Assembly: GCA_048882505.1 (NCBI GenBank)
Contig: JBHLRO010000002.1
Location: 210,001 to 242,000 of the forward strand
From: Candidatus Thorarchaeota archaeon
GTDB taxonomy: Archaea > Asgardarchaeota > Heimdallarchaeia > Hodarchaeales > Hodarchaeaceae
DNA: 32,000 bases
Direction: 5' to 3'
A program made the translations under genes and the position numbers. Shown one piece after another: positions 161-22,698 of the stretch; positions within the stretch are counted from its first letter, which is position 1, and the number at the start of each line of letters is the position of its first letter. The notes under the pieces are model-generated. The model made no database searches. It saw only the letters and a program-made list of their open reading frames with translations, and was not told where the DNA came from.

Positions 161-1579
161 ATGGATTTAGAAGAATTTCGTAAGAATGGTCATATGCTAG
201 TTGATTGGATGACTGATTATTTAGGGACAGTTGAACAATATCCAGTGAAATCACAGGTTAAACCTCGTGAGATCTATAATCAGATCCCAGATGAACCACC
301 AACCGTGGGTGAGGATTTCAATCACATATTCAGTGAATTCGAAAACAAAATCATTCCTGGAATTACTCACTGGCAACATCCCTGTTTTTTCGCATATTTT
401 CCTGCAAATAGTAGCCGACCATCTATTTTGGCTGAAATGTTGACAGCTACTCTTGCTGCACAGTGTATGATTTGGGATACCTCCCCTGCAGCCGCAGAGC
501 TAGAAGAAAAGATGATGAATTGGTTGAGGGATATGATTGGATTACCCAAGTCCTTTTCTGGGGTAATTCAAGATACAGCATCGACTGCAACTCTCTGCTC
601 ACTTTTGACGGCAAGAGAGAAGGCTACTCACTATGAGGTCAATGCTACTGGATTGTATAGCAAAAGAGCTTTTACAATATATTGTTCAAGTGAAACACAC
701 TCGAGTATTGAGAAAGACGTCAAGATCGTTGGGTTAGGAAAGAACAATTTAAGGAAGGTTTCCGTGGATCAGAATTATGCCCTACGACCTGATAAACTAG
801 AAGAAATCATTAAAAGGGATCTTAATGATGGATTTACTCCACTGGCCGTTGTGGCTACGATCGGAACGACTGGATCTACCGCGATTGATCCAATAAAGCA
901 TATCGGGGAAATTTGTAGAAAGTATAAGATATGGCTTCATGTGGACGCAGCTTTGGCAGGAACCGCCCTACTTCTCCCTGAAAAGCGGTGGATGATTGAG
1001 GGGATAGAATATGTTGACACATTCACATTCAATCCTCATAAGTGGATGTTTACAAATTTTGACTGCAACGCTTACTTCATAAAGGATTCCGAGGCTCTTG
1101 TACGGACATTTGAGATCACTCCCGAATATCTTAAGACGCAGGCCAGAAATGTGAATAACTATCGAGATTGGGGGGTTCCACTTGGCCGAAGATTTCGGGC
1201 ATTGAAGTTATGGTTTGTTATCAGGCATTTTGGTGTTTCTGGATTGCAAGAAAAAATCCGATATCATTTAGATATGACAGACATGCTGAGAAAAAAAATC
1301 GAACAAGCAGATGATTTTGAATTATTAGCACCAGTTCCGTTGAATACAATTTGTTTCAGATATAAGCCCTCATCCATTAGGGATATGGAGAAACTCAATA
1401 GAATGAATGAGGAATTGCTTGTAAGAACGAATCAAACGGGAAAACTCTATCTAACTCATACGAAACTGAATGGAAACTATAGTCTACGATTCGTAGTAGG
1501 CCAAACCGATACTCAAGAGAGACATGTCAACCAGGCATGGGAAATAATTCAAGATTTAGCCAAAAAAATAAACTTTTAA
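161..1579 (+). CDS. PLP-dependent group II amino-acid decarboxylase (aromatic-L-amino-acid/DOPA decarboxylase-like)
   Basis: Motifs ITHWQHPCFFAYFP, HVDAA, NPHKW (PLP lysine) and LGRRFRALKLWF are typical of the DDC/HDC family. The ORF track starts at TTG 149; ATG 161 is preferred. Confidence 0.92.
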   Translation: MDLEEFRKNGHMLVDWMTDYLGTVEQYPVKSQVKPREIYNQIPDEPPTVGEDFNHIFSEFENKIIPGITHWQHPCFFAYFPANSSRPSILAEMLTATLAAQCMIWDTSPAAAELEEKMMNWLRDMIGLPKSFSGVIQDTASTATLCSLLTAREKATHYEVNATGLYSKRAFTIYCSSETHSSIEKDVKIVGLGKNNLRKVSVDQNYALRPDKLEEIIKRDLNDGFTPLAVVATIGTTGSTAIDPIKHIGEICRKYKIWLHVDAALAGTALLLPEKRWMIEGIEYVDTFTFNPHKWMFTNFDCNAYFIKDSEALVRTFEITPEYLKTQARNVNNYRDWGVPLGRRFRALKLWFVIRHFGVSGLQEKIRYHLDMTDMLRKKIEQADDFELLAPVPLNTICFRYKPSSIRDMEKLNRMNEELLVRTNQTGKLYLTHTKLNGNYSLRFVVGQTDTQERHVNQAWEIIQDLAKKINF

Positions 1580-3576: not shown

Positions 3577-4524
3577 GTGGGTACGGCTGTGTCTCACAAA
3601 AGAACTCGAAAAACATTATTTGAGCTGGCCAATCAGCCAGAGCTCTGGATATTTTCCAATGTCTTGACAGAACCTTGGGTAGACGTATCTGACCTTGATG
3701 TTTCGACCTTTGAAAAAACGGTCGAGATTCCGATTACGCTACCCAACGGGATTTGTATCTTCAAACTGGAATCGGATGGACCCCTCGGACAGATTATCTC
3801 CATGTGTGTAGCACATGGGTCCCAAATCCGTTTGTTTCATTTAATTGATAGCAGTGAATTCCCCCACTTTAGAGAGCGAGTTTTAAAATATGTAAAAGAT
3901 ATTCTTCCCGATTATTTTGACTTTTATAGCTACATGCGATCTTATTACGCACGAAAGTTCCGTGATTTTGGTCTAACGGATGTTCTTGGAGTAGATACCG
4001 AGATTAAGGATTTAACGGAATATGGAACGAAATCAAGGATTCTTCAACGAATTTCTGATCCTATCGAAGGTTATGAAATCCCTCAATACTGGCGAGTGCT
4101 TGATACATTAGGTACTAATGTGTCTGATCGCCCCTCTGATCAAAAAAGGTTGGTTGTGTCTCTCCAAGTCAAAGCATGTGATATTCTGGCTAAACACGCA
4201 GTGATCGATACCTTAAGATGCACGATCATCGCCCTAAAACATTATGCGGATCTACTCGATGAATTGCAGTCTGAGTCCAAACGAGACCCGTGGAGTGACC
4301 ATCGTACAATAGCAGAAGGGCTTTTCAAATTGGGGAATTTTCAAGATGCAGCCGTTTTTTATAGCAAATGTCTTTCTCAGCCCTCATTTGATAACCAAGA
4401 CCAACTACAAGAGCAGATTCTAAAAGCGTTAAAGGCTTCAATCGACCAACTAGGCAGTCGTGAGTTTTTAGAATATGCCCTAATGGCAGCGAAAATCGCG
4501 CGTTCCCGTCAACTCGAAAGATAG
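3577..4524 (+). CDS. Hypothetical protein with a C-terminal TPR-like helical segment
   Basis: 315-aa ORF. The segment HRTIAEGLFKLGNFQDAAVFYSKCL fits a TPR consensus. No family recognised. Confidence 0.65.
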   Translation: MGTAVSHKRTRKTLFELANQPELWIFSNVLTEPWVDVSDLDVSTFEKTVEIPITLPNGICIFKLESDGPLGQIISMCVAHGSQIRLFHLIDSSEFPHFRERVLKYVKDILPDYFDFYSYMRSYYARKFRDFGLTDVLGVDTEIKDLTEYGTKSRILQRISDPIEGYEIPQYWRVLDTLGTNVSDRPSDQKRLVVSLQVKACDILAKHAVIDTLRCTIIALKHYADLLDELQSESKRDPWSDHRTIAEGLFKLGNFQDAAVFYSKCLSQPSFDNQDQLQEQILKALKASIDQLGSREFLEYALMAAKIARSRQLER

Positions 4525-5234
4525 GTTTGGAATAGATTCACGTTCAAAACTGCGGTGCCATAGAATATCTCACCGTACTTGCAGCCGATTAATGAGCCGA
4601 AATAGCGGCCCATGCCCTCAATCCAGTCCAAAATAGGTGGATTATAGGAGGGATGAGCTCGAAACTGGCTTTTGTACTGTAATAGAGCTTTCCGTTTTTT
4701 TTCAAATTGATTCGAAATGTCTACAATAAACTGAAGGGGGAAAAATCCTTCGCTCTTGATTTCTCGAGCAGTGTAATAGTAAAAGCTCCGAGATATATGC
4801 CAGGGCGGTAGTCCCTCAAAGCGATGTTCCCATTTTGACAGGCGACTATAGAATATTGCTGCGTCAAAAATTAATTGGCTTTGATAGTGGTCTGGCGAGG
4901 CATTAGGAGTGGCTCCCTGCATTCCAATTACGATTCGAGGTTTGGCTTGACGGAATATTTTTGCCAGAGCTATACGGGCCTTAATGGAATCCATAAGTGT
5001 CCGATTAGGCAAATCAAGTAGAACTCGTTCGATTCCTAATGTTTTGGCAGATTGAAGTGATTCTTCAATTCGAATTGTGGGGTCATCATTGAAAGGCGTG
5101 GGCTCCCCATCTGTAAGGTCAATGATTCCGCAGCGATATCCCTCCTCCGATAGGAGTGCTAGAGTGCCGCCACATCCAATTTCAGCGTCATCGGGATGAG
5201 GAGAAACCGCTATTACATCATAATGCTCCGTCAT
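4509..5234 (-). CDS. PIG-L/LmbE family N-acetylglucosaminyl deacetylase (BshB1-like)
   Basis: Motifs SPHPDDAEIGCGG, DLTDGE, SPDH and KRKALLQYKSQF. An AAGGTGA ribosome-binding-like site lies upstream of the ATG. Confidence 0.9.
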   Translation of the reverse strand: MTEHYDVIAVSPHPDDAEIGCGGTLALLSEEGYRCGIIDLTDGEPTPFNDDPTIRIEESLQSAKTLGIERVLLDLPNRTLMDSIKARIALAKIFRQAKPRIVIGMQGATPNASPDHYQSQLIFDAAIFYSRLSKWEHRFEGLPPWHISRSFYYYTAREIKSEGFFPLQFIVDISNQFEKKRKALLQYKSQFRAHPSYNPPILDWIEGMGRYFGSLIGCKYGEIFYGTAVLNVNLFQTYLSS

Positions 5235-5454: not shown

Positions 5455-6156
5455 TTGAGCCAAGAAGAGGTTGTCTTTGAAGAGAGCAAACAAGGAATTA
5501 AGATCGTCTTTTGGGGTGCAACCATGGCTGGGAAGACGACGGCGCTCTCACTTTTCCACGCCATAAAAAAGAGAGAAGATCCCGAGAGTGTCTATAATTT
5601 CCTCAAACTTGAAGACAAGGCTACGGAGCGCACGATTGGATTCGATCAAGCCACCTTCGGTTTGGGCACAGGTACGGGACGAGAATTTAAATATCATCTC
5701 TTTACGACTCCTGGACAAGATCGTTTCAAAAGCATGCGTAAAATCGTTGTGAATGGTCTTCATGGCATTATAATTGTGTTAGATTCAGAATCTGCGCGGT
5801 GGGAGGAGAACAAGACTTCGCTTACAGAATTGTTTGAGATCTTGGAAGATAAACTGGTCAATGGGGAAGTTAAGTTACAGATAATGTTAAATAAGATGGA
5901 TTTACCTGTTGACACGCGTATTTCGGCGGCAGATGTTGGGCGTTTGATGGTGGAGGCAGGGGTCTCGGACAAGTTACGAGACACTTTTGCCAGTGTACAT
6001 GAAGTTTCATGCCTAGAGGCTTTACATTCATTGAAGGAAACATGGAGTAGTGGAAACTGGAACCCGAAATCTCGACCTCAGCCGGTACAACGAATCATCA
6101 TGCCCATCCAGCAAGTAATTAGGGACATTTTGATAGAGGAACTTCGAAAGAATTAA
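5455..6156 (+). CDS. Small Ras-superfamily GTPase, MglA-like
   Basis: G1 GATMAGKTT, switch I TERTIGFD (MglA has TDRTLFFD), G3 FTTPGQ (MglA-type TxPGQ rather than DxxGQ) and G4 NKMD. TTG start. Confidence 0.9.
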   Translation: MSQEEVVFEESKQGIKIVFWGATMAGKTTALSLFHAIKKREDPESVYNFLKLEDKATERTIGFDQATFGLGTGTGREFKYHLFTTPGQDRFKSMRKIVVNGLHGIIIVLDSESARWEENKTSLTELFEILEDKLVNGEVKLQIMLNKMDLPVDTRISAADVGRLMVEAGVSDKLRDTFASVHEVSCLEALHSLKETWSSGNWNPKSRPQPVQRIIMPIQQVIRDILIEELRKN

Positions 6157-6338
6157 GGTTCGTTAAGAGAGGGGTGACTGTGGGGTCATTCATGGTGTTC
6201 TCTCTAAACGATAAGGGATCTAGTTTGATATACAAGTATTGGAGGGATTTTTTAGTTTTTACTTCTTGGGATCGTCTTGAAGAGGGATTTCATTCCCTTG
6301 AGATTGAACACACGGAAACATACTAGAAGCTCCAGCAT

Positions 6339-6566
6339 TTACAACTTAGATTTCCCAGGTTTCGCCTCAAAGTCTTCCAAGCTTCAATATTGGGAACCCA
6401 CACAATGGCCATGGGTCATGCGGTGTTCCTCGAGTTGGGTATCTGTCCACGCCCCATATTTCGTTTCGGCCTGTGCTAAGACCTGTTCGAGGGTGATCGC
6501 TTGGCCCTTGTATAGTTTCGGCCAGAGCTTAGTAAAAACTGAATATCCCGCATTTCTTAGTTCCAC
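6339..6566 (-). CDS. Small hypothetical protein: 60 aa if TGA 6384-6386 is a stop, 75 aa if it is read through as selenocysteine
   Basis: GTG start at 6566. After ...THGHCVGSQY there is a TGA, then AGC TTG GAA GAC TTT GAG GCG AAA CCT GGG AAA TCT AAG TTG TAA (SLEDFEAKPGKSKL*). A TATA-like TTGTATAAAA lies about 45-55 nt upstream on the minus strand. Confidence 0.55.
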
Positions 6567-6628
6567 GTCCCAAAATTCTACTAGTAATAAAAATGGAGAT
6601 GTTCAATCATTTTTATACAATAAAAAAG

Positions 6629-7588
6629 CTATGGCATCCAATCACGTAATCGAGGGAGCCCGATAGTGGTGTAATCGTGTTTGATTTGTTTTATATTCTT
6701 AAAGATCTGAGATCTCATTTCTTCTAACTGCAAAGTACTCATAATCTTTCCTAACGTTGGTTTGACGTTTTTCAATCCTGCAGTAATTCGACTGTACTCA
6801 GGTATTTGTTTTTCTGTTAATAATTCGTTCTTGTAGATTGAATGTTCTGCAGATAAACCCCCTGATAAAATCTTAAAGCCGTCTTCCTCTGAAAGTGTCG
6901 TTTTTGATTTACACAAATTTTCTAATAGATCAAAGATTTCCTTATTTGGATGCATTATATTCCTCGTTACAACACCTCGCATATACATCTGGGTTGTTTC
7001 TCGTTCTAAAAGAAATGTAAACGGGATTTTAGTCATATACTCTGTCATTTCTAATTTTTGGGAGCTAATTGTTGAACTAGATTGATCCTGAGCTCGAATA
7101 AAGGCCTCACTGGGTAAAACAATCCCACAAATTTCTCGAAAATCGGTGATGATTTTTCCTACAGAGATAGAAAATTGAGTATAATAAACGCCAACACCAA
7201 CAACTAGGATAAAGGCTTCGCCAGTTGTTTCTTCCGTTCCTGTGAGAGTAATATCTGGGATTAATAAGACGGAATCTCTTCTCAATTCGGTCACAGGCTG
7301 ATTTAAATAAAATCCCTTAAAATTCGTATCAATCAATTGATTCCAGGAGGGGAAAAACCAAATTTCTTTTAGAATACCCAATTGACTTTCTTCTTGTAGC
7401 TGAATTTGACTCAAATCACTCTCAGAGCTGGCTTGCTCCCTGATTTCTTGTTCTCGGGCTGCGATTTGCTGTTCAATCCGTTCCTTTTCGGTTTCCAATC
7501 TTAGGAGTTCAGTTTCTAGTGCTTTCAGTCGTCGTTGAATACTTTTCAATCGCTGCTTATCGTGTTCTTGTTGTTCAATCAATTTCAT
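6629..7588 (-). CDS. Hypothetical protein with an N-terminal coiled coil and an unrecognised globular domain
   Basis: Long ORF with heptads in LKSIQRRLKALETELLRLETEKERIEQQI. ATG 7588 follows GAGTGAAGG; the ORF track start is 7606. Confidence 0.75.
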   Translation of the reverse strand: MKLIEQQEHDKQRLKSIQRRLKALETELLRLETEKERIEQQIAAREQEIREQASSESDLSQIQLQEESQLGILKEIWFFPSWNQLIDTNFKGFYLNQPVTELRRDSVLLIPDITLTGTEETTGEAFILVVGVGVYYTQFSISVGKIITDFREICGIVLPSEAFIRAQDQSSSTISSQKLEMTEYMTKIPFTFLLERETTQMYMRGVVTRNIMHPNKEIFDLLENLCKSKTTLSEEDGFKILSGGLSAEHSIYKNELLTEKQIPEYSRITAGLKNVKPTLGKIMSTLQLEEMRSQIFKNIKQIKHDYTTIGLPRLRDWMP

Positions 7589-7645
7589 GTGTTTGCCTTC
7601 ACTCATTGCTGAATAATATTGGTGAATTACTTGCTTTAAATGTAA

Positions 7646-10115: not shown

Positions 10116-13100
10116 GTGAATCACCAATTAAAAAGGCCCGAATTCTCGGAGGAAGAGGCCCAGGCGATTGTCAAGAAGCTGTACGGAGTTGACGGAATTG
10201 CACAAGAATTTCCCAGTGAACGTGACCAAAATTTTTATCTGGGGGCATTTGATGGGTCTGAATTTGTTTTAAAGATTGCTAGTACACTTGAGAAGAGGGA
10301 AATACTTGATTTTCAAAATCAGGCCATGATTCATCTGTCTTCTGTCACTCCTGGGATCGCTCCACGGGTAATTTCGACCAAGAATAATAATCTGCTTGGG
10401 ACGTATAAAAAGGGAGAAGAATCCTATTTCGTAAGATTGCTTACATGTCTTCCTGGAGAGATTCTTGCAAGAATAAATCCTCACCATGAAGAGCTTGTTG
10501 CGAATTTCGGCCGCTTTATTGGAGAACTAACAAAAGGTTTGTCAAATTTTTCGCATCCTTCATCAGACCGTGAGTTTCACTGGGATTTAAAACACGCTCA
10601 CACTGTGATTGAAAGATATAAAGAATATATTCAACTTCCTGAAAGAAAGGCGCTTTTGGAATATTTCTTGACCTTGTTTGAAAGGAATACGAAATCAAAG
10701 GTAAACAAGTTACGGAAGAGCGTGATCCATAACGATGCCAACGATTTCAATATTATTGTGAATTATCGCCCCGCCCCGTTTAGCTACGACTTTGGTATTA
10801 TAGACTTTGGAGACATGGTAAAGAGTTGTACCGTTTTTGATTTGGCAGTTGCTATTGCATATTTGATACTTGGAAAAAAAAATCCAATTGCTATTGCTTC
10901 AATAGCCGTTACAGGCTTCCATTCCGTGTTTCCACTGACTGAACTGGAATTGGAATGCTTATTTATATTTATTTGTCTCCGTCTTTGTCTAAGTGTGACT
11001 ATATCGGCATATCAGCAAAATATGGATCCCGATAATGAATATCTGACCATATCAGAAGATTTGGCCTGGAAAACATTATATCAGCTGAAAGAGATTCATC
11101 CCGAATTTGCCCACATATCCTTTCGCATTGCGTGTAAAATGATTCCCTCTCTGAAAACAGAAAGTATAAGCCAATGGCTATCCAGAACTTCACACACTTC
11201 TATTATAGAATACAACTTTTCAAATCAGCCGCACATCGTCTTTGATCTCAGTGTGAATAGTTTAGAATTCAACTCATTTTACGAACTTCAGAGTAAGGAC
11301 TGTTTAGAGCGTCTTATATTTGACAGAATGAAAGAAGCAAATACCAATATCGGTATTGGGAGACATAATGAGCCGCGTCTTTATTACACCATTGATCCCC
11401 CTAGTTTTGCTGAGGCTCCAACAATACATTTGGGGTACGATTTATTCCTAATACACCGCCTACCGATTTTCAGTCCAGCCGATGGTCAAGTTTACTGGAA
11501 CCAAACTCATAACTTGACTGATTTTAATTCCATACTTATCCTCAAGCATGTTCTAAACAAGGGAGAGTTAGAATATTTCACTATTTACAGAAATTTAGAG
11601 GCTGATTCGATAAAAAACCTCAAAATAAGGGATGAAATCAGCCAAGGGGAACATTTGGGTTATGTGGGGAACCTAAAGGGTGAAACCCCCCTTTATTTCC
11701 TTCATTTTCAGCTGTCAACTTGTTTATTCGGAGAACCCAATAAGTTACCCTTCGTAATTCCAGTAAATCAAAAAAAAGTCTGGTTATCAGTGTGTCTCGA
11801 CCCTAATTTTTTCCTGCAGATTCCTAATGAGTCGTTTCCCCAAGATACCCTGTCTGTAGAAGAAATTCTTATGTTAAGGAGGCAACTAATAGGATCATCT
11901 TTGAGTATCTCGTACATTAACCCCTTAAACATTGTACGGGGGTATGGACAATATCTATATGACCAAAATGCCCGGCCTTACCTTGATGCGGTGAATAATG
12001 TCCCACATGTTGGACACAATCATCCCAAAGTTGTGGATGCTTTACATCGCCAGTCAATCGCGTTAAACACTAACACACGTTATCTGCATGAAAACCTAGT
12101 AAGATATGCTCAACGATTGTGTGCAACATTCCCCGATCCTCTCAAAGTGTGTTTTTTTGTCAATAGCGGCAGTGAAGCGAATGAATTAGCCTTGCGGCTA
12201 GCTAGGACGTACACAAAACAGCATGACATAATCGTGGTCGATCATGCCTATCACGGTAATACTGGGGAGTTGATCAGTATCAGTCCCTACAAATATGATG
12301 GCCCCGGAGGTAAAGGCCCCCCTCCGTACGTACATAAGGTGAGTATGCCCGATATCTTTCGCGGAATACACAAAGCCAGTGATCCCGAGGCATCCAAGAA
12401 ATATGCTGCCGAAGTGGAGCAAATATTGGTAAGCTTGCAGGAAGCTGGAAGAGGCCCAGCGGCCTTTATTTGTGAGTCGTTACCTGGAGTCGGAGGGCAG
12501 ATTGTGTTTCCCAAGGGGTATTTAGAAGAGGTTTATAAGCACACCAGAGGTTTTGGTGGTGTTTGTATTGCAGATGAGGTGCAGGTGGGATTTGGTAGAG
12601 TAGGCAGTCATTTCTGGGGGTTTGAGCTCCAGAATGTGGTACCTGATATTGTAACCCTGGGAAAACCAATGGGAAATGGACATCCTTTAGGTGCTGTTGT
12701 GACAACATCAGGAATAGCAAGGGCATTTAATAATGGAATGGAATACTTTACAACCACAGGAGGCAATCCCGTCTCCTGTGCCGTTGGATTAGCTGTTCTT
12801 GATGTCATCCAAGAGGAAAATCTTCAAAAAAATGCACTCGAAATCGGAAACTATCTCAAGAAGGAGCTTCTGCAATTAAAGGAGAGATTTCCCATAATTG
12901 GCAATGTCCGCGGAGAGGGACTCTTTCTTGGAGTTGAATTGGTTCTAAATCCAGAAAAATTGGATCCAGCGCCGCTAAAAACCCAGTACGTTGTAGAAAG
13001 GATGAAAGAAGAAGGCATATTACTAAGTTTCGATGGACCTTTATTTAATGTGATTAAAATCAAACCTCCTTTGATATTCACAAAGGACAACGCCGTTTAC

Positions 13101-13151
13101 CTTATAAAAAGGCTTGAACAAGTTCTTACAGAAGATTATTTACAGGTTTAG
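10116..13151 (+). CDS. Fusion of an APH/hydroxylysine-kinase-like domain, a degenerate M23-like domain and a class III PLP aminotransferase/phospho-lyase
   Basis: Kinase motifs IHNDANDFN and IIDFGD. M23-like HLGYD and FLHFQL. Class III PLP motifs [34 protein letters not shown] and TLGKPMGNG. Confidence 0.9.
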
Positions 13152-18285: not shown

Positions 18286-19560
18286 ATGGTTTTAGAGGCA
18301 GATTTCGCCATAATCAATGCGAATGAACTGGTAACCCTTAAAGGATCAAGTGAGGCTCCTCAGATTAAAGTACAAATGAGAGAATTGGGAATCATTCGTA
18401 ATGGTGCCGTAGCGGTAAGAAACGGGAGGATTGTTGCCGTTGGAAAGACACAGGATGTTTTAAATAACCTTAAGAAAGGATTTGAAGTCGTAAATGCCGC
18501 AGGAAAACTTGTGACTCCCGGATTAATCGATCCTCATGTTCATCTGGTGTTTGCTGGCACCAGAGAAGATGAACTTGAAAAGATGGCTGTATTAGGTGTT
18601 CCTTACCTGGAGATTAAAGCTCAAGGAGGAGGGATGAATAAATCGTTAAAAGAAACTGCAGCGACTGGTTTTAAAACACAGATTGGAATAACCTCCAAAA
18701 TACTGGACACGATGCTTATTCATGGAACAACCACCATTGAAGCGAAAAGCGGATATGAAATGACTTTCGACGGGGAGATCAAACAGCTCGAAATAATCAA
18801 CACTCTTAATAAACTCCATCCTCTTGACCTTGTTCCAACTTTTCTAGCACAGGGGATACCACCGGAATTTGAAGAGCGGGTGGATGACTTAGTCGATGAA
18901 ATTGTCGAAAAATGGATCCCTGAGATCTCCAAACGAAAATTAGCGCAATATATCGACGTATTTTGCGAAAGAGGTTACTATAACCTTGAACAAAGTCGTC
19001 GAATTTTGGAAACTGGTAGAAAATATGGATTGAAATTAAGAAACCATTGCGATTGGTTGGCTCATAGTGGGGGAGCTAAGTTGGCTGCGGATCTAGGAGA
19101 CGTAACCTCCGCAGATCATCTGATATTCACCCCAATGCACGAAGTGGAAGCTCTAAAGGATCAAGGTACTATTATCATCTTCCTTCCAACTTCGCCATTC
19201 TGTTATGTAGGAACTTACGCGGACGCCCGTGCAATAATTGATCGAGGATTGCCCGTAGCGATAGCCACCGATGTAAGTGCGGCTAACCGCTGTGAATCCA
19301 TGCAGATGATGATGACCCTTGCAGTCCTGAAAATGAAGATGACGGCGGCTGAAGCACTCACAGCTGCAACTATCAATGCAGCTCATTCTATCGATCGTGC
19401 CCATGACATAGGAAGCCTTGAACAGGGAAAAAAAGCGGATATTGTGATTTTTAATGCACCAAACCATAAGTTCTTTCCTTACAATTATGGGATCAATCTA
19501 GCTGAGAAAGTGTTCAAAAATGGCTGTTTGGTGGTTGAAAACGGCAATCTGAGTTACTAA
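18286..19560 (+). CDS. hutI: Imidazolonepropionase-like amidohydrolase (divergent)
   Basis: Motifs PGLIDPHVHLVFAG.R..E, YLEI...GGG, TTIEAKSGY, IDVFCE, SADHL, IATD and GSLEQGKKAD. Clusters with hutU and hutH. Confidence 0.85.
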   Translation: MVLEADFAIINANELVTLKGSSEAPQIKVQMRELGIIRNGAVAVRNGRIVAVGKTQDVLNNLKKGFEVVNAAGKLVTPGLIDPHVHLVFAGTREDELEKMAVLGVPYLEIKAQGGGMNKSLKETAATGFKTQIGITSKILDTMLIHGTTTIEAKSGYEMTFDGEIKQLEIINTLNKLHPLDLVPTFLAQGIPPEFEERVDDLVDEIVEKWIPEISKRKLAQYIDVFCERGYYNLEQSRRILETGRKYGLKLRNHCDWLAHSGGAKLAADLGDVTSADHLIFTPMHEVEALKDQGTIIIFLPTSPFCYVGTYADARAIIDRGLPVAIATDVSAANRCESMQMMMTLAVLKMKMTAAEALTAATINAAHSIDRAHDIGSLEQGKKADIVIFNAPNHKFFPYNYGINLAEKVFKNGCLVVENGNLSY

Positions 19561-19740
19561 TACGCCATTCGTTCCTATTCACCAGATGACGTTCTTTTAC
19601 TTGGTAATACCAAATTTCCCGTCTTATATCGTTTTGAGTTATTCTTATAAAGCGACGGATGGATTGAACGGGTAACATCCTGCGTTAACCCAGTTTATAA
19701 CAAATCATTCCCGAGTAAATCTATAGCAGGCGAAAATAGC

Positions 19741-20460
19741 GTGTCGGTCTTTACAAAACGGTTGAGTAAATGGTTTAAAAAACCTGAAGAACCTACTGAG
19801 AAAGAACTTCTCGTAAATTTCATTCATGACTTAGAATCTGTATTAGAGTCGATGGAAGGAATGGCTGGTGATCTTTCGGGAGGAATGTCAGAACAAGTTG
19901 TCCAGAAACGCTCATTGACATCCAAACTACTAGCATCTTTGCCTCGTTTTCTTCAACCCAGAGATATCCAGAAACAAAACGAAAAGATTAAGGAAATTAA
20001 TGAAACAAAACGAAAAATGCAGCTACTTCGTGGAACGTTGGGAGAAATCAGCGAATCAATCGAAACCATGGATTTAAGAGCGAGCCCTCCGGAACAAACG
20101 GGTGTTGGCGCAAGGATTTATGAAATTGCATATCCTGGGGAGGTAATTTCCTCTAAAAATGTGGGAACTCTAGAAGAACGCCTCCAAATGCTTGAAAACT
20201 CCTTCTTAACTTCTATGGATAGAATGAATGAACAGATGACACAGATATCCCAGAATCTAGGTACCCTAGCTCGGCGTTTAGATGAACAGGGAGTTAAAAT
20301 CGATAAAATCGATACAAAAATTAACGAAGTAGATTCTAAATTGCAGAAAGTTCAATCGACATTAGGGAAAATTTCGAGAAAACTGACTCAGAACCGTACA
20401 TTACTGGCTCTGTTGGCGGGGTCAGTAATTGCCCTTGTAATTGTCATTGTTGTACTCTAG
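19741..20460 (+). CDS. Tail-anchored SNARE-like protein (Q-SNARE motif plus C-terminal transmembrane helix)
   Basis: Central Q183 (DEQG). Hydrophobic residues at SNARE layer spacing: M159, M162, M166, I169, L173, L176, L180, then I187, I190, I194, V197, L201, V204, L208, I211. Terminal 19-aa hydrophobic LLALLAGSVIALVIVIVVL and no N-terminal signal peptide. Confidence 0.8.
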   Translation: MSVFTKRLSKWFKKPEEPTEKELLVNFIHDLESVLESMEGMAGDLSGGMSEQVVQKRSLTSKLLASLPRFLQPRDIQKQNEKIKEINETKRKMQLLRGTLGEISESIETMDLRASPPEQTGVGARIYEIAYPGEVISSKNVGTLEERLQMLENSFLTSMDRMNEQMTQISQNLGTLARRLDEQGVKIDKIDTKINEVDSKLQKVQSTLGKISRKLTQNRTLLALLAGSVIALVIVIVVL

Positions 20461-20569
20461 AATCCAACTTCGGTTCCCGATTTCTGTGCATCCTTAAATC
20501 AATAGGCAAAAGAATTTAAAGGGCACAGGCCCAAATGAGATTAATTGAGATTAAAGGGTGAATTCTGTT

Positions 20570-21037
20570 TTGCAGAAGAATGAAATCAACGCAGAACTGT
20601 CCCGGCTACTTAAAAGTGATACATCGATCAAGGTGACATTGCTTGGGGATCGTACAGGTCTTACTATTGCGCGTGCATCACGTCTACTCGTTTCCGAAAC
20701 AATGGGAGCATTTGATCTAGAGAGTATTGGTGCAATTGCTTCAGCGGTCTTCTGTGGTGCAGCAGAACAAGGTAGCGCGCTGGCGCTAGGAAATCTGGCC
20801 GTTATGCTTGCTGAATTCACCGATGGTAAAATACTGACCGCCCAGTCAGGGGATAGGGGGATTCTAGTCGTGGTAGCCGAGCCTGATGCCCAGTTAGGCC
20901 TGGTACGCGTTCGTATGAAGGAAACATCAGAGGCCTTGGCCATGTTAATGGGAAAATTAACGGAACCAGCGGTAAAAATTAAGAAACCAGAATCTCAATC
21001 CATAATGGCTGCGTTAAAAGAGCTGGAAAACTTCTAG
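20570..21037 (+). CDS. Roadblock/LC7 (MglB-like) domain protein
   Basis: Roadblock pattern DRTGLTIA...SIGAIASAVF...LAEFTDGKIL...GILVVVAEPDAQLGLVR, followed by a C-terminal tail helix. GGGTGA at about 20556-20561 looks like the RBS, favouring TTG 20570 over GTG 20558. Confidence 0.9.
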   Translation: MQKNEINAELSRLLKSDTSIKVTLLGDRTGLTIARASRLLVSETMGAFDLESIGAIASAVFCGAAEQGSALALGNLAVMLAEFTDGKILTAQSGDRGILVVVAEPDAQLGLVRVRMKETSEALAMLMGKLTEPAVKIKKPESQSIMAALKELENF

Positions 21038-21160
21038 TAAACGCCTTCTGAAACCACTTCTTGTTTCTTCTGTGTTTTGTCATTCTTTTAGAGGATCCAC
21101 TAGCCAACCAGAATTAACTAAAAGGATCTGGAAAAATTTATTTTTCTTCCTTCCAAAAAT

Positions 21161-21802
21161 GTGACACGGGTCATATTTATGCGTTTTTCGCAGTTAAACG
21201 ACATAATGCTAAAACTCACAGATCCCGTGACTGTGAGTGTTCTTAATATCTTGTTAAACCAGAAGGAAATTATTGACGAACAGATCGTAAACCTTCTGAA
21301 TGAAGAGATCGAAGAAAAACCGAAAGTTCCTTCATCCCAACCCGATGATGCGGCAAATGAGAGTTCCCGTATCGCCTTAAAGGAAGTAAGAAGATCGTTG
21401 TACAAATTGAATGAAAGGTCTTTGGCCCGTTATAGGCGGGTACGCGATAAGGAAACCGGCTATTTTGTGTACTATTGGTCTCCTATCTGGGAGCGAATAC
21501 GAGATCTGATCATAAGTCGTCGTAAACTTAGTCTAAAGAAACTACGTCAACGATTAGATTATGAACAGAGAAATCTCCTTTATGCTTGCCAGGAGGGACA
21601 TTCCCCCGTAACGTTTTCGGATGCCTTTGAAATGGGGTTCATATGCGCCTCGTGTGGAGACGAATTGGCACAGAAAGATAACCAGACCACCATTGACTTC
21701 CTACAGAAGAAGATTAAGGTATTAGAAGGGGAGCTAAATCGGGGGCTGGAGGAGCTAAAAAACCTGCCGGATATCAGGAAAGAAGTGAAGAATACAAACT
21801 AA
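21161..21802 (+). CDS. tfe: Transcription factor E (TFIIE-alpha homolog)
   Basis: Winged helix EVRRSLYKL...RVRDKETGYFVYYW and zinc ribbon YACQEGH...AFEMGFICASCG. The start may be ATG 21179. Confidence 0.93.
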   Translation: MTRVIFMRFSQLNDIMLKLTDPVTVSVLNILLNQKEIIDEQIVNLLNEEIEEKPKVPSSQPDDAANESSRIALKEVRRSLYKLNERSLARYRRVRDKETGYFVYYWSPIWERIRDLIISRRKLSLKKLRQRLDYEQRNLLYACQEGHSPVTFSDAFEMGFICASCGDELAQKDNQTTIDFLQKKIKVLEGELNRGLEELKNLPDIRKEVKNTN

Positions 21803-21951
21803 AAGCAACTACTTCGAAGCTAGCATTAATAATTGCTAAAGAACAGGCAATTTAACCTATCTCGACGGAAAGAAATGGGAGGAGATGCCAAATTACTTAT
21901 AAGATAGTTCCATGAGAAGAATTTGGTACATCTATACCCTCCACCTTCTTT

Positions 21952-22698
21952 TCAGGCGTGTTGGTTAACAGAGTCTCCATTTTCTACCAGATATGATTCT
22001 AATATCCACTGAGATGCTTGTTCCAAGGAATCAAAAATCTTGGTTGGACGAGAGAACTGTTGGAATATCTCCCGGGAAATCAAACCCGTCGTGAGGCCAA
22101 TAGTGGTTAATCCAGCAGCCGTTCCCGCCAGGATATCTGCTGGCATGTCTCCAATCAGTACAGAATAAGAAGCTGGAACAGAACATCCTTCAAGAGCAAG
22201 AAAAACTCCCTCGGGGTCAGGTTTCAAGTTCTGCACATCGTCACGAGATATGATCCCCTCCTTCGAAAAATATTGTATTAAATCATGTGTTTCCAGTGTA
22301 TTTAGGAGGATTTTACGTGGAGCGAGGGTATAGATGCCTAATTTGAATCCTCCCTCGTTTTGAAGTCTTTTTAGTGTTGATCGTACATCAGAAAACAAGG
22401 GAGCAGATTTATAAACATCTCTCGCCTGAACTGCGCATTTCATGGCAAATCGTAAAGATCGATATCTTGATAGGCCTGCCTTTCTGCCAATATTCCAGAA
22501 TAGCCTGAGAATTAATGCAGCTCCATTTGATTGCGATCTAGAGTGGAATTCAGCGATTAGGTCTGTACCTAGTCGGTTTATAGTTGATTCTGAAACTATT
22601 ATCCCGTGTTGGTTCAGATTAGTAATTACCATTTCGTAGAAACTGCCCATAGTATCCACAAGTGTACCATCGAAATCAAAAATGACCGCTCGATCCAA
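21952..22698 (-). CDS. HAD-superfamily hydrolase (phosphoglycolate phosphatase-like)
   Basis: Motif I DFDGTLVD, plus KPDP and IGDMPAD. Confidence 0.92.
   Translation of the reverse strand: MDRAVIFDFDGTLVDTMGSFYEMVITNLNQHGIIVSESTINRLGTDLIAEFHSRSQSNGAALILRLFWNIGRKAGLSRYRSLRFAMKCAVQARDVYKSAPLFSDVRSTLKRLQNEGGFKLGIYTLAPRKILLNTLETHDLIQYFSKEGIISRDDVQNLKPDPEGVFLALEGCSVPASYSVLIGDMPADILAGTAAGLTTIGLTTGLISREIFQQFSRPTKIFDSLEQASQWILESYLVENGDSVNQHA

Follow-up and report, generated by a model that had tools for sequence, protein, structure and literature searches.

Does the order of three genes at a Hodarchaeales locus, a SNARE-like gene followed by the genes for a roadblock protein and for transcription factor E (TFE-alpha, tfe), mark a dedicated module or an inherited arrangement of neighbors? 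The locus lies in a 32,000-nucleotide (nt) stretch of DNA, here called the window, from Candidatus Thorarchaeota archaeon (GenBank assembly GCA_048882505.1, contig JBHLRO010000002.1, positions 210,001 to 242,000). The source genome, designated G000, is a 4.3-Mb Hodarchaeales assembly. An earlier note had placed the three as consecutive, co-oriented genes on the + strand, which the list of open reading frames (ORFs) confirms at 19741-21802, and had suggested that a conserved housekeeping locus could here hold a minimal module for proto-trafficking that pairs the SNARE with a GTPase regulator. The matter bears on a question of eukaryogenesis, the coupling of SNARE fusion machinery to small-GTPase control. 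From the identities of the genes, their phylogeny, and the way their order is distributed, we regard these as three separate genes that stand together by inherited gene order and not as a dedicated module, a reading to which we give a probability of about 0.68.

The SNARE-like ORF (19741..20460, +) encodes 239 amino acids (aa) from a GTG start. The longest roadblock ORF (20558..21037, +) encodes 159 aa from GTG 20558, and relatives conserve a start at TTG 20570 (155 aa). Likewise, the longest TFE-alpha ORF (21161..21802, +) encodes 213 aa from GTG 21161, with ATG 21179 (207 aa) as the conserved start. These conserved starts are backed by AGGTGA/GGGTGA-type Shine-Dalgarno sequences upstream or by a conserved N-terminus. 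The spacers measure 97 nt (SNARE-roadblock) and 123 nt (roadblock-tfe) by the longest ORFs, and 109 and 141 nt with the conserved starts. The assigned identities (SNARE-like, roadblock, and tfe) were upheld by Pfam and NCBIfam, profile, and fold matches. The genome has 12 matches to the roadblock family Robl_LC7, and with an estimated 4,000 or so genes in 4.3 Mb, the chance of a roadblock as the downstream neighbor of any given gene is about 0.3%, a post hoc figure.

Conservation was surveyed in 83 species-level genomes of the class, 37 of which carry the SNARE. It is present in 19 of the 21 genomes of the window's own genus (family f1) plus G000, in both f2 genomes, the single f3 genome, all three f5 genomes, and 11 of the 12 f6 genomes, and in none of the 31 f4 or 12 f7 genomes. 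All genus loci with enough DNA show the order SNARE, roadblock, tfe; in the two genus genomes lacking a SNARE match and in the split loci, the roadblock or SNARE gene lies at a contig end. The trio sits within a block of about 20 kb (hyp315, PIG-L, GTPase, hutU, hutH, sometimes M20 and GS, hutI, SNARE, roadblock, tfe, HAD, DUF7121, HTH, grpE, dnaK, and dnaJ), and comparison of 17-kb stretches from 20 genus genomes found the whole block kept in the 20 genus loci (about 20 species) wherever the contig reaches. Because the entire block is syntenic, the trio is no better conserved than its flanks, and conservation within the genus is background synteny with nothing specific to the trio.

Outside the genus, the survey of the 83 class genomes and further Hodarchaeales loci found the adjacency in only part of one order. 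In the G070 type of family f2, the SNARE is followed by the roadblock and then by a Ski2-like helicase gene with no tfe, and the upstream gene differs too. In the P0071 type, a lineage from a soil metagenome, the SNARE is followed after 680 nt by a roadblock at the contig end. In the P0069 type, roadblock and tfe remain in order but lie on the strand opposite to the SNARE, from which three genes and 3.3 kb separate them; hutI and GS still flank the SNARE. In G069, also of f2, the SNARE, roadblock, and tfe lie on three contigs, and the SNARE occurs as a tandem pair with nuoJ behind it. Tandem SNAREs are also found in two more lineages (L103/L105 and L106), where the 4 kb around the SNARE hold no roadblock, and the f5 and f6 loci have neither roadblock nor tfe near the SNARE. 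Overall, the SNARE-roadblock order is retained in two Hodarchaeales lineages outside the genus, broken in at least four, and absent from f3, f5, and f6, and it is not conserved beyond background synteny across independent lineages.

The SNARE tree agrees with this distribution, separating a Hodarchaeales ("Hod") clade from a clade of f3, f5, and f6 with support 99, and the roadblock adjacency occurs in part of the Hod clade only. The roadblock-tfe order, retained in the genus and the P0069 type, has lasted about as well as the SNARE-roadblock order, retained in the genus and the G070 and P0071 types. Since tfe encodes a general factor, the former provides an internal control and cautions against inferring function from adjacency. 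A distance of 67-74 kb separates tfe from the best roadblock match in the closed genomes of SNARE-less f4 (G006 and G007). The ancestral order in Hodarchaeales was probably SNARE, roadblock, tfe, which would have persisted in one genus within the 20-kb syntenic block and eroded differently in other lineages.

The roadblock gene itself does not follow the SNARE across the class. Its family occurs in 79 of the 83 genomes, including 29 of 31 in SNARE-less f4 and all 12 in f7, so that phyletic co-occurrence with the SNARE (37 of 83) is lacking. In the roadblock tree, the SNARE-adjacent sequences form one clade (17 genus rows with G070 and G069; support 97/92) that is sister to a third paralog confined to the genus, and both clades nest with the conservative copy G000:C18:14090-14581, the f7 copies, and the second f2 copies. 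Families f3, f4, f5, and f6 hold one co-ortholog each. Because the clade nests among Hodarchaeales copies and f3-f6 each hold a single co-ortholog, the SNARE-adjacent roadblock is, by its place in the tree, an order-specific duplicate of a class-wide gene, and the presence of that class-wide gene does not track the SNARE. The duplicate is confined to one order and the SNARE spans at least five families; identity to the window roadblock is 36-40% in SNARE-less f4 and f7 versus 26-36% in SNARE-bearing f5 and f6. The paralog would have arisen within Hodarchaeales, diverged fast, and come under the strong constraint seen today.

The earlier note had also assigned the roadblock protein to the MglB/LAMTOR kind of GTPase-platform fold, and here it was right. 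The protein matches Pfam Robl_LC7 with 31.2 bits (gathering cut-off 23) over residues 12-107, covering the whole model. The AlphaFold2 (AF2) model has a mean predicted local distance difference test score (pLDDT) of 84 and the element order H-E-E-H-H-E-E-E-H, and it has 146 matches in the PDB at E ≤ 1e-3. The top structural matches, with TM-scores by target of 0.8-0.9, include MK-D1 Roadblock3 (9jue), MglB (6hjm, 6izw, and 1j3w), the Thor roadblock (7f8m), and LAMTOR2 (5x6v_B). With MglB of Myxococcus xanthus and Thermus thermophilus (6HJM, 6IZW, 3T1Q, and 1J3W), the protein shares the alpha-beta-alpha roadblock fold (TM-score by target 0.80-0.86, root-mean-square deviation about 2 Å) and a short conserved helix at the C-terminus, joined on by a flexible linker. 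Its model and MglB chain 6izw_B, from the MglA-MglB complex, align over 151 columns, and in that structure we take the MglB C-terminal helix to be bound to MglA. All 34 aligned members of the roadblock family, including those of SNARE-less families, end in the invariant tail ALKELExF after a variable linker (ALKELENF at window 21011-21034, +), and by analogy with the MglB helix this tail is likely a docking peptide.

Differences from the known systems are also evident. Identity to MglB is only 18-26%, the score with the NCBIfam MglB equivalog is 23.6 bits (cut-off 200), and the SNARE-adjacent copy has no adjoining GTPase gene. The solved Asgard roadblocks (MK-D1 Roadblock3 9JUE, MK-D1 RB 7YH1, and Thor-RB 7F8M) are similarly stand-alone, single-domain proteins that form homodimers in crystals (9jue: E 5e-10, TM-score by target 0.89-0.93), although they come from other Asgard classes. 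Tran et al. (2024, PMC10933270) note for MK-D1 that GTPase genes as a rule do not share an operon with roadblock genes, whereas the parent roadblock of Hodarchaeales directly adjoins a GTPase gene. The longin R-SNAREs (Ykt6, Sec22b, and VAMP7) and Ragulator LAMTOR2/3 likewise link a roadblock/longin-type fold with membrane traffic; in longin SNAREs, however, the regulatory domain precedes the SNARE motif in one fused polypeptide, whereas here it has a gene of its own, downstream of the SNARE gene end that encodes the transmembrane helix, and the window protein is a roadblock and not a longin by Pfam and fold ranking. The SNARE-adjacent copy adds a new, lineage-specific member to the MglB-like roadblocks.

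The nearest paralog points to a small GTPase as the partner of this family. At G000:C18:14090-16272 (L074:5090-7272), a roadblock of 164 aa is followed 16 nt downstream by an Arf/Ras-like GTPase of 199 aa and then by a second roadblock of 134 aa, and this roadblock-GTPase-roadblock cluster is probably the parent of the SNARE-adjacent copy. The C18-type roadblock-GTPase pairing is retained in f1 and f2. Because the parent copy adjoins a GTPase gene (as mglB adjoins mglA), the ALKELExF tail is kept in SNARE-less families, and the protein aligns with MglB, we infer that the conserved partner of the family is a small GTPase and not the SNARE. The SNARE-adjacent protein would most likely be a dimeric platform or regulator of such a GTPase, similar to a GTPase-activating protein or guanine nucleotide exchange factor (GEF), probably working via its roadblock face and C-terminal tail as the MglB helix does on MglA.

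The spacer sequence suggests separate promoters for the SNARE and roadblock genes. Among public sequencing runs, those listed for 19600-21900 and for 19741-21037 were DNA/metagenome contigs from three studies, with no RNA among them. The SNARE-roadblock spacer contains a putative roadblock promoter, a B recognition element (BRE)/TATA-like box (aaaagaatttaaag; 20508..20521, +), whose role is suggested by its conservation. The GAAAAAGAATTTAWA box is found in this spacer in nearly all genus members, more weakly in the f2 locus L022, at 50-85 nt ahead of the start codon of the roadblock; it is followed by a conserved leader (GTGAATAGAAAGT...AGGTGA) in which AGGTGA is the Shine-Dalgarno sequence. 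Because this conserved box stands between the two genes, the roadblock appears to have its own promoter, separate from that of the SNARE. After the roadblock stop, a T-rich stretch (cttgtttcttctgtgttttgtcattctttt; 21059..21089, +) is a possible archaeal oligo-T termination signal, and a TATA-like box (aaaatttattttt; 21133..21145, +), 34-46 nt upstream of ATG 21179 and conserved in part of the relatives, may be the tfe promoter. Amongst relatives, the SNARE-roadblock spacer measures 109-456 nt and the roadblock-tfe spacer 44-141 nt. The latter holds T-runs up to T8 (L019-L021) and, in most species, TATA-like boxes; in L005 and L006 it is 44 nt without a box, and some species may transcribe roadblock and tfe together.

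Most genus members (spacers of L005-L023) carry a leader of about 50 nt (GTGATATAAGTGGAAGAGTGAATAGAAAGTCATG.GGA.TTAGGTGAA) upstream of the roadblock; in L007, for instance, the spacer in question is the stretch of 125 nt that precedes the roadblock start (about 2334, counted on the strand of the gene). In G000 and G061, the leader is shorter and different. An Rfam search of window 19000-22500 gave no match in the intergenic spacers or the leader, and a scan for sigma-70 promoters and hairpin terminators, which is ill-suited to archaea, found sites no commoner than in shuffled sequences. The Rfam matches were confined to hutI and were all sub-threshold hits to C/D-box small RNAs; among them, a snoPyro_CD match (19305-19355, +) reached 22.4 bits against a gathering cut-off of 45 (E 0.16) and is probably due to chance.

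The SNARE-like protein is, as its relatives and numbering indicate, the Hodarchaeales ortholog of HPS1, a published Heimdall SNARE. As a single sequence, it falls below the Pfam cut-offs for both SNARE (PF05739, 22.3 bits; cut-off 26.8) and V-SNARE_C (PF12352, 22.0 bits; cut-off 27.1), and a single-sequence PDB search returned weak coiled-coil matches only. Nine of the 19 family members match each SNARE model at E ≤ 0.01, and generic coiled-coil families match equally often. The family profile matches syntaxin-6 (2nps_D, E 3.5e-4), syntaxin-7, syntaxin-1, and SNAP-25/29 in the PDB, with designed coiled coils scoring higher. Residues 150-216 (20188..20388, +) show the 16-layer heptad pattern of a SNARE motif, with M159, M162, M166, I169, L173, L176, L180, Q183, I187, I190, I194, V197, L201, V204, L208, and I211 at layers -7 to +8. 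All layers besides 0 are thus M, I, L, or V, and layer 0 is Q183 (Q in 17 and H in two of the 19 family members). A basic linker (SRKLTQNRT) connects the motif to a C-terminal transmembrane anchor at the very end of the protein (residues 221-239, LLALLAGSVIALVIVIVVL; 20401..20457, +), the top 19-residue Kyte-Doolittle window with a mean of 3.24.

Close relatives number 67 (55-94% identity, nearly all 239 aa) and come from metagenome-assembled genomes of Hodarchaeales/Heimdallarchaeota, and remoter members of the family share 27-40% identity. HPS1 (PWI47941.1, Heimdallarchaeota B3-JM-08) and HPS2 (OLS22354.1, LC_2) have been described as Heimdall prototypic SNAREs (Neveu et al. 10.1101/810531; Bentahar et al. 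10.64898/2026.10.19.760048). The window protein has the layout of both, with helices at the N-terminus, the 16-layer motif, a short basic linker, and the transmembrane helix at the C-terminus, and like them it is encoded once per genome. With HPS1 it further shares the numbering (motif 150-216, F155, and Q183), and the top natural PDB match of the profile, syntaxin-6 (2NPS chain D), is the chain that phased HPS1. The orthology rests on the relatives and this shared numbering, the HPS1 sequence itself lying outside the alignment. There is no substantive difference from HPS1 and HPS2, and the window SNARE is a further member of the Hod clade. The HPS1 motif crystallizes as a homotetrameric four-helix bundle (10.64898/2026.10.19.760048); by homology, the window protein would assemble in parallel into a bundle of four helices with glutamine in the 0-layer, and its C-terminal helix would anchor it in the membrane. 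Among 19 Hodarchaeales loci examined, the start codon of the SNARE gene is TTG or GTG in 14 and ATG in five, and many have a GGAG-type Shine-Dalgarno sequence upstream.

Tandem SNARE duplicates occur in at least three lineages (the G069/P0072 type, GCA_048940615.1, and GCA_048938655.1), with copies at L035:2981-3697 and 3760-4470 (-), L103:3227-3982 and 4001-4699 (+), L106:3264-3929 and 3956-4714 (+; the upstream copy is shorter, 217 aa as called), and L102:1-375 and 362-1129 (+). The roadblock adjoins none of these loci.

The third gene is the single general transcription factor E (TFE-alpha) of the cell. It matches Pfam TFIIE_alpha with 39.8 bits (cut-off 22.9) and the NCBIfam TFE-alpha family with E 6e-40, and the class genomes hold one match each in nearly every case, including G000. 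Like archaeal TFE-alpha, the homolog of TFIIE-alpha, it has a winged-helix and a zinc-ribbon region and is single-copy; it differs by an acidic insertion within the N-terminal 60 residues. The equivalog models score below their cut-offs over residues 62-194 (PRK06266, 136 bits versus 180; TIGR00373, 103 bits versus 149.5), and such scores are usual for Asgard sequences (136 versus 180 bits). Relatives share the conserved N-terminus M-x-FSQLNDI.

Several observations weigh against inheritance of gene order as the whole explanation. The SNARE-roadblock order occurs in three Hodarchaeales lineages with differing flanks on both sides (hutI/tfe versus a zinc-ribbon protein/helicase), even though SNARE identity among these lineages is only about 37-40%, and its persistence exceeds that of many neutral gene pairs. 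A roadblock beside the only SNARE of a genome with 12 roadblock matches is unlikely a priori. The lineages without the adjacency, except the P0069 type, all carry a tandem SNARE duplicate, which could hint at compensation rather than drift. Within the genus, identity is 80-99% for the roadblock paralog, 67-96% for TFE, and 55-94% for the SNARE as sampled among the 67 relatives, and such strong constraint on the roadblock therefore argues for an important role. Read-through from the SNARE gene into the roadblock may also occur. The roadblock fold is related to the longin fold, and in eukaryotes these folds serve to regulate SNAREs and GTPases. The persistence despite differing flanks, the low prior chance, the constraint, and the fold relationship, together with the origin of the roadblock clade inside a SNARE-bearing order, would favor a true SNARE-roadblock pair with tfe as a bystander, in which the dimer binds the SNARE (by its N-terminal helical domain, its conserved YE-x-x-YPGE linker, or its motif) or recruits a small GTPase to the membrane that bears the SNARE, as a trans-acting forerunner of longin-SNARE or Rab-GEF/SNARE coupling. 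We nevertheless hold such a pair to be unlikely. The adjacency is missing from SNARE-bearing f3, f5, and f6 and was lost in at least four Hodarchaeales lineages, its conservation in the genus is not specific to the pair, roadblock and tfe have stayed together about as often, a promoter-like box separates the genes, and the tail and fold are common to orthologs in SNARE-less families. Moreover, the order of the SNARE transmembrane end and then the roadblock could not yield the topology of a longin-SNARE by simple fusion. Complex prediction with SNARE residues 1-216 and the roadblock, both supplied as alignments, gave a score of 0.00, which is evidence neither way. A more specific version, in which the Hodarchaeales paralog was recruited to the SNARE, its dimer docking on the N-terminal domain or the YE-x-x-YPGE linker and its ALKELExF tail bringing a small Arf/Ras-like GTPase to that membrane, is in our judgment improbable.

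The roadblock might instead belong to one of its other neighbors. Eukaryotic roadblock proteins feed into TORC1, and co-transcription with tfe could tie the protein to transcription or growth control, leaving the SNARE as the bystander. The box-less 44-nt spacer of L005 and L006 would fit such an operon, as would the shorter distance (the roadblock-tfe spacer of relatives is always the shorter of the two) and the continued pairing of roadblock and tfe in the P0069 type, where the SNARE has come apart from them. We regard it as very improbable, however, as the gene after the roadblock encodes a helicase in the G070 type and a gelsolin-domain protein in G069, the spacer of most species holds T-runs and TATA-like boxes, and the two genes lie far apart in the closed f4 genomes. 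A wider neighborhood is also conceivable, in which the Arf/Ras-like GTPase of the window (5455..6156, +; Arf 35 bits, Ras 33 bits), 13.6 kb upstream of the SNARE, is cognate to the roadblock and an ancestral cluster was split by insertion of the hut genes in the genus. Across the genus, the order GTPase, hutU, hutH, hutI, SNARE, roadblock is kept. In G069, the co-oriented run C333 (L054:4042-7357) comprises the roadblock ortholog, a 376-aa gelsolin-repeat protein, a Ras-family GTPase (167 bits), and an Arf-like GTPase that is the ortholog of window 5455-6156 (E 3.8e-64) and lies 2 kb downstream of the roadblock, and the parent roadblock adjoins a GTPase gene as well. Against this, G000 has about 62 Arf/Ras-like GTPase matches, one per 70 kb, and one within 15 kb is expected in an estimated third of places, so proximity to a GTPase gene is weak evidence; furthermore, no GTPase gene lies beside the SNARE or roadblock in the G070-type and P0069-type loci within the DNA covered. 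Such a neighborhood therefore seems unlikely to us, and inheritance of gene order remains the preferred reading of the locus.

A proto-trafficking module, as the earlier note had proposed, is accordingly weakly supported: the adjacency is not kept in most relatives outside one genus-level block, the promoter-like box separates the SNARE and roadblock genes, and the conserved features of the roadblock are those of its orthologs in SNARE-less families. The neighborhood alone cannot carry the claim, because it is lineage-restricted, lies within general synteny, is probably no operon, and contains a roadblock whose GTPase-linked parent gene occurs in SNARE-less relatives as well. The SNARE and roadblock are presumably uncoupled.

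To our knowledge, the Heimdall SNAREs are the only archaeal candidates, and we know of no partner for them. A genuine SNARE-roadblock pair, if true, would be the first testable regulatory link for these proteins, and recruitment of the roadblock to the SNARE would mean that, in the archaeal lineage closest to eukaryotes, longin-SNARE or GTPase-tether-SNARE coupling has a trans-acting counterpart. The SNARE family is already published, and the analysis of its gene neighborhood is the only new element here. No description of a SNARE-roadblock neighborhood was found in the literature searched, the gene neighbors of Heimdall SNAREs are not mentioned in either paper on these proteins (10.1101/810531; 10.64898/2026.10.19.760048), and two supplementary files of a Hodarchaeales cultivation preprint (10.1101/2025.02.26.640444) contain no mention of roadblock, SNARE, MglB, or "factor E". 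The present results narrow the search to an order-specific, constrained roadblock paralog and two candidate GTPases (G000:C18:14598-15194 and window 5455-6156), and they flag an unannotated protein, here called cl1, as a different recurrent neighbor of the SNARE in Kari- and Heimdall-type families. As Hodarchaeales strains are now in culture, the roadblock, the candidate GTPases, and cl1 are open to experimental testing.

The cl1 protein (about 350 aa) adjoins the SNARE in 12 of 13 resolvable f5/f6 loci, in three relative orientations (L037:6799-7860, +, and 12 further loci, L038-L050). In G000, window 6629-7606 (-) encodes a paralog and C12:45912-46946 a closer copy. Its motifs are IPSW, GFYLNRPV, GPG..YTEFS, RGV.SRN.FHPNK, and a C-terminal DW.P. 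The protein has no Pfam match, and Foldseek with its AF2 model (pLDDT 83.7) found nothing in the PDB at E ≤ 1e-3. The ESM Atlas feature search stayed below 0.9, structural TM-scores in the Atlas were at most 0.27, and VIA-align matched the N-terminal helical hairpin only (Z ≤ 8.6), although the lack of an assigned fold does not make the fold a new one. Co-occurrence of cl1 with the SNARE was considered and rejected, as cl1 is present in SNARE-less f4 (30 of 31) and absent from SNARE-bearing f3, and it is also absent from f7.

Other features were noted in the vicinity of the genes discussed. A 129-aa ORF beside the window GTPase (6277-6666) was tried as a roadblock or longin candidate and rejected, having no Pfam match and a composition unlike that of proteins. 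In G069, a Swi5/Mnd1-like gene lies divergently upstream of the L054 run. Within the histidine-utilization block of the window, a 1011-aa ORF (10116-13151, +) combines phosphotransferase (APH), peptidase M23, and class-III aminotransferase domains.

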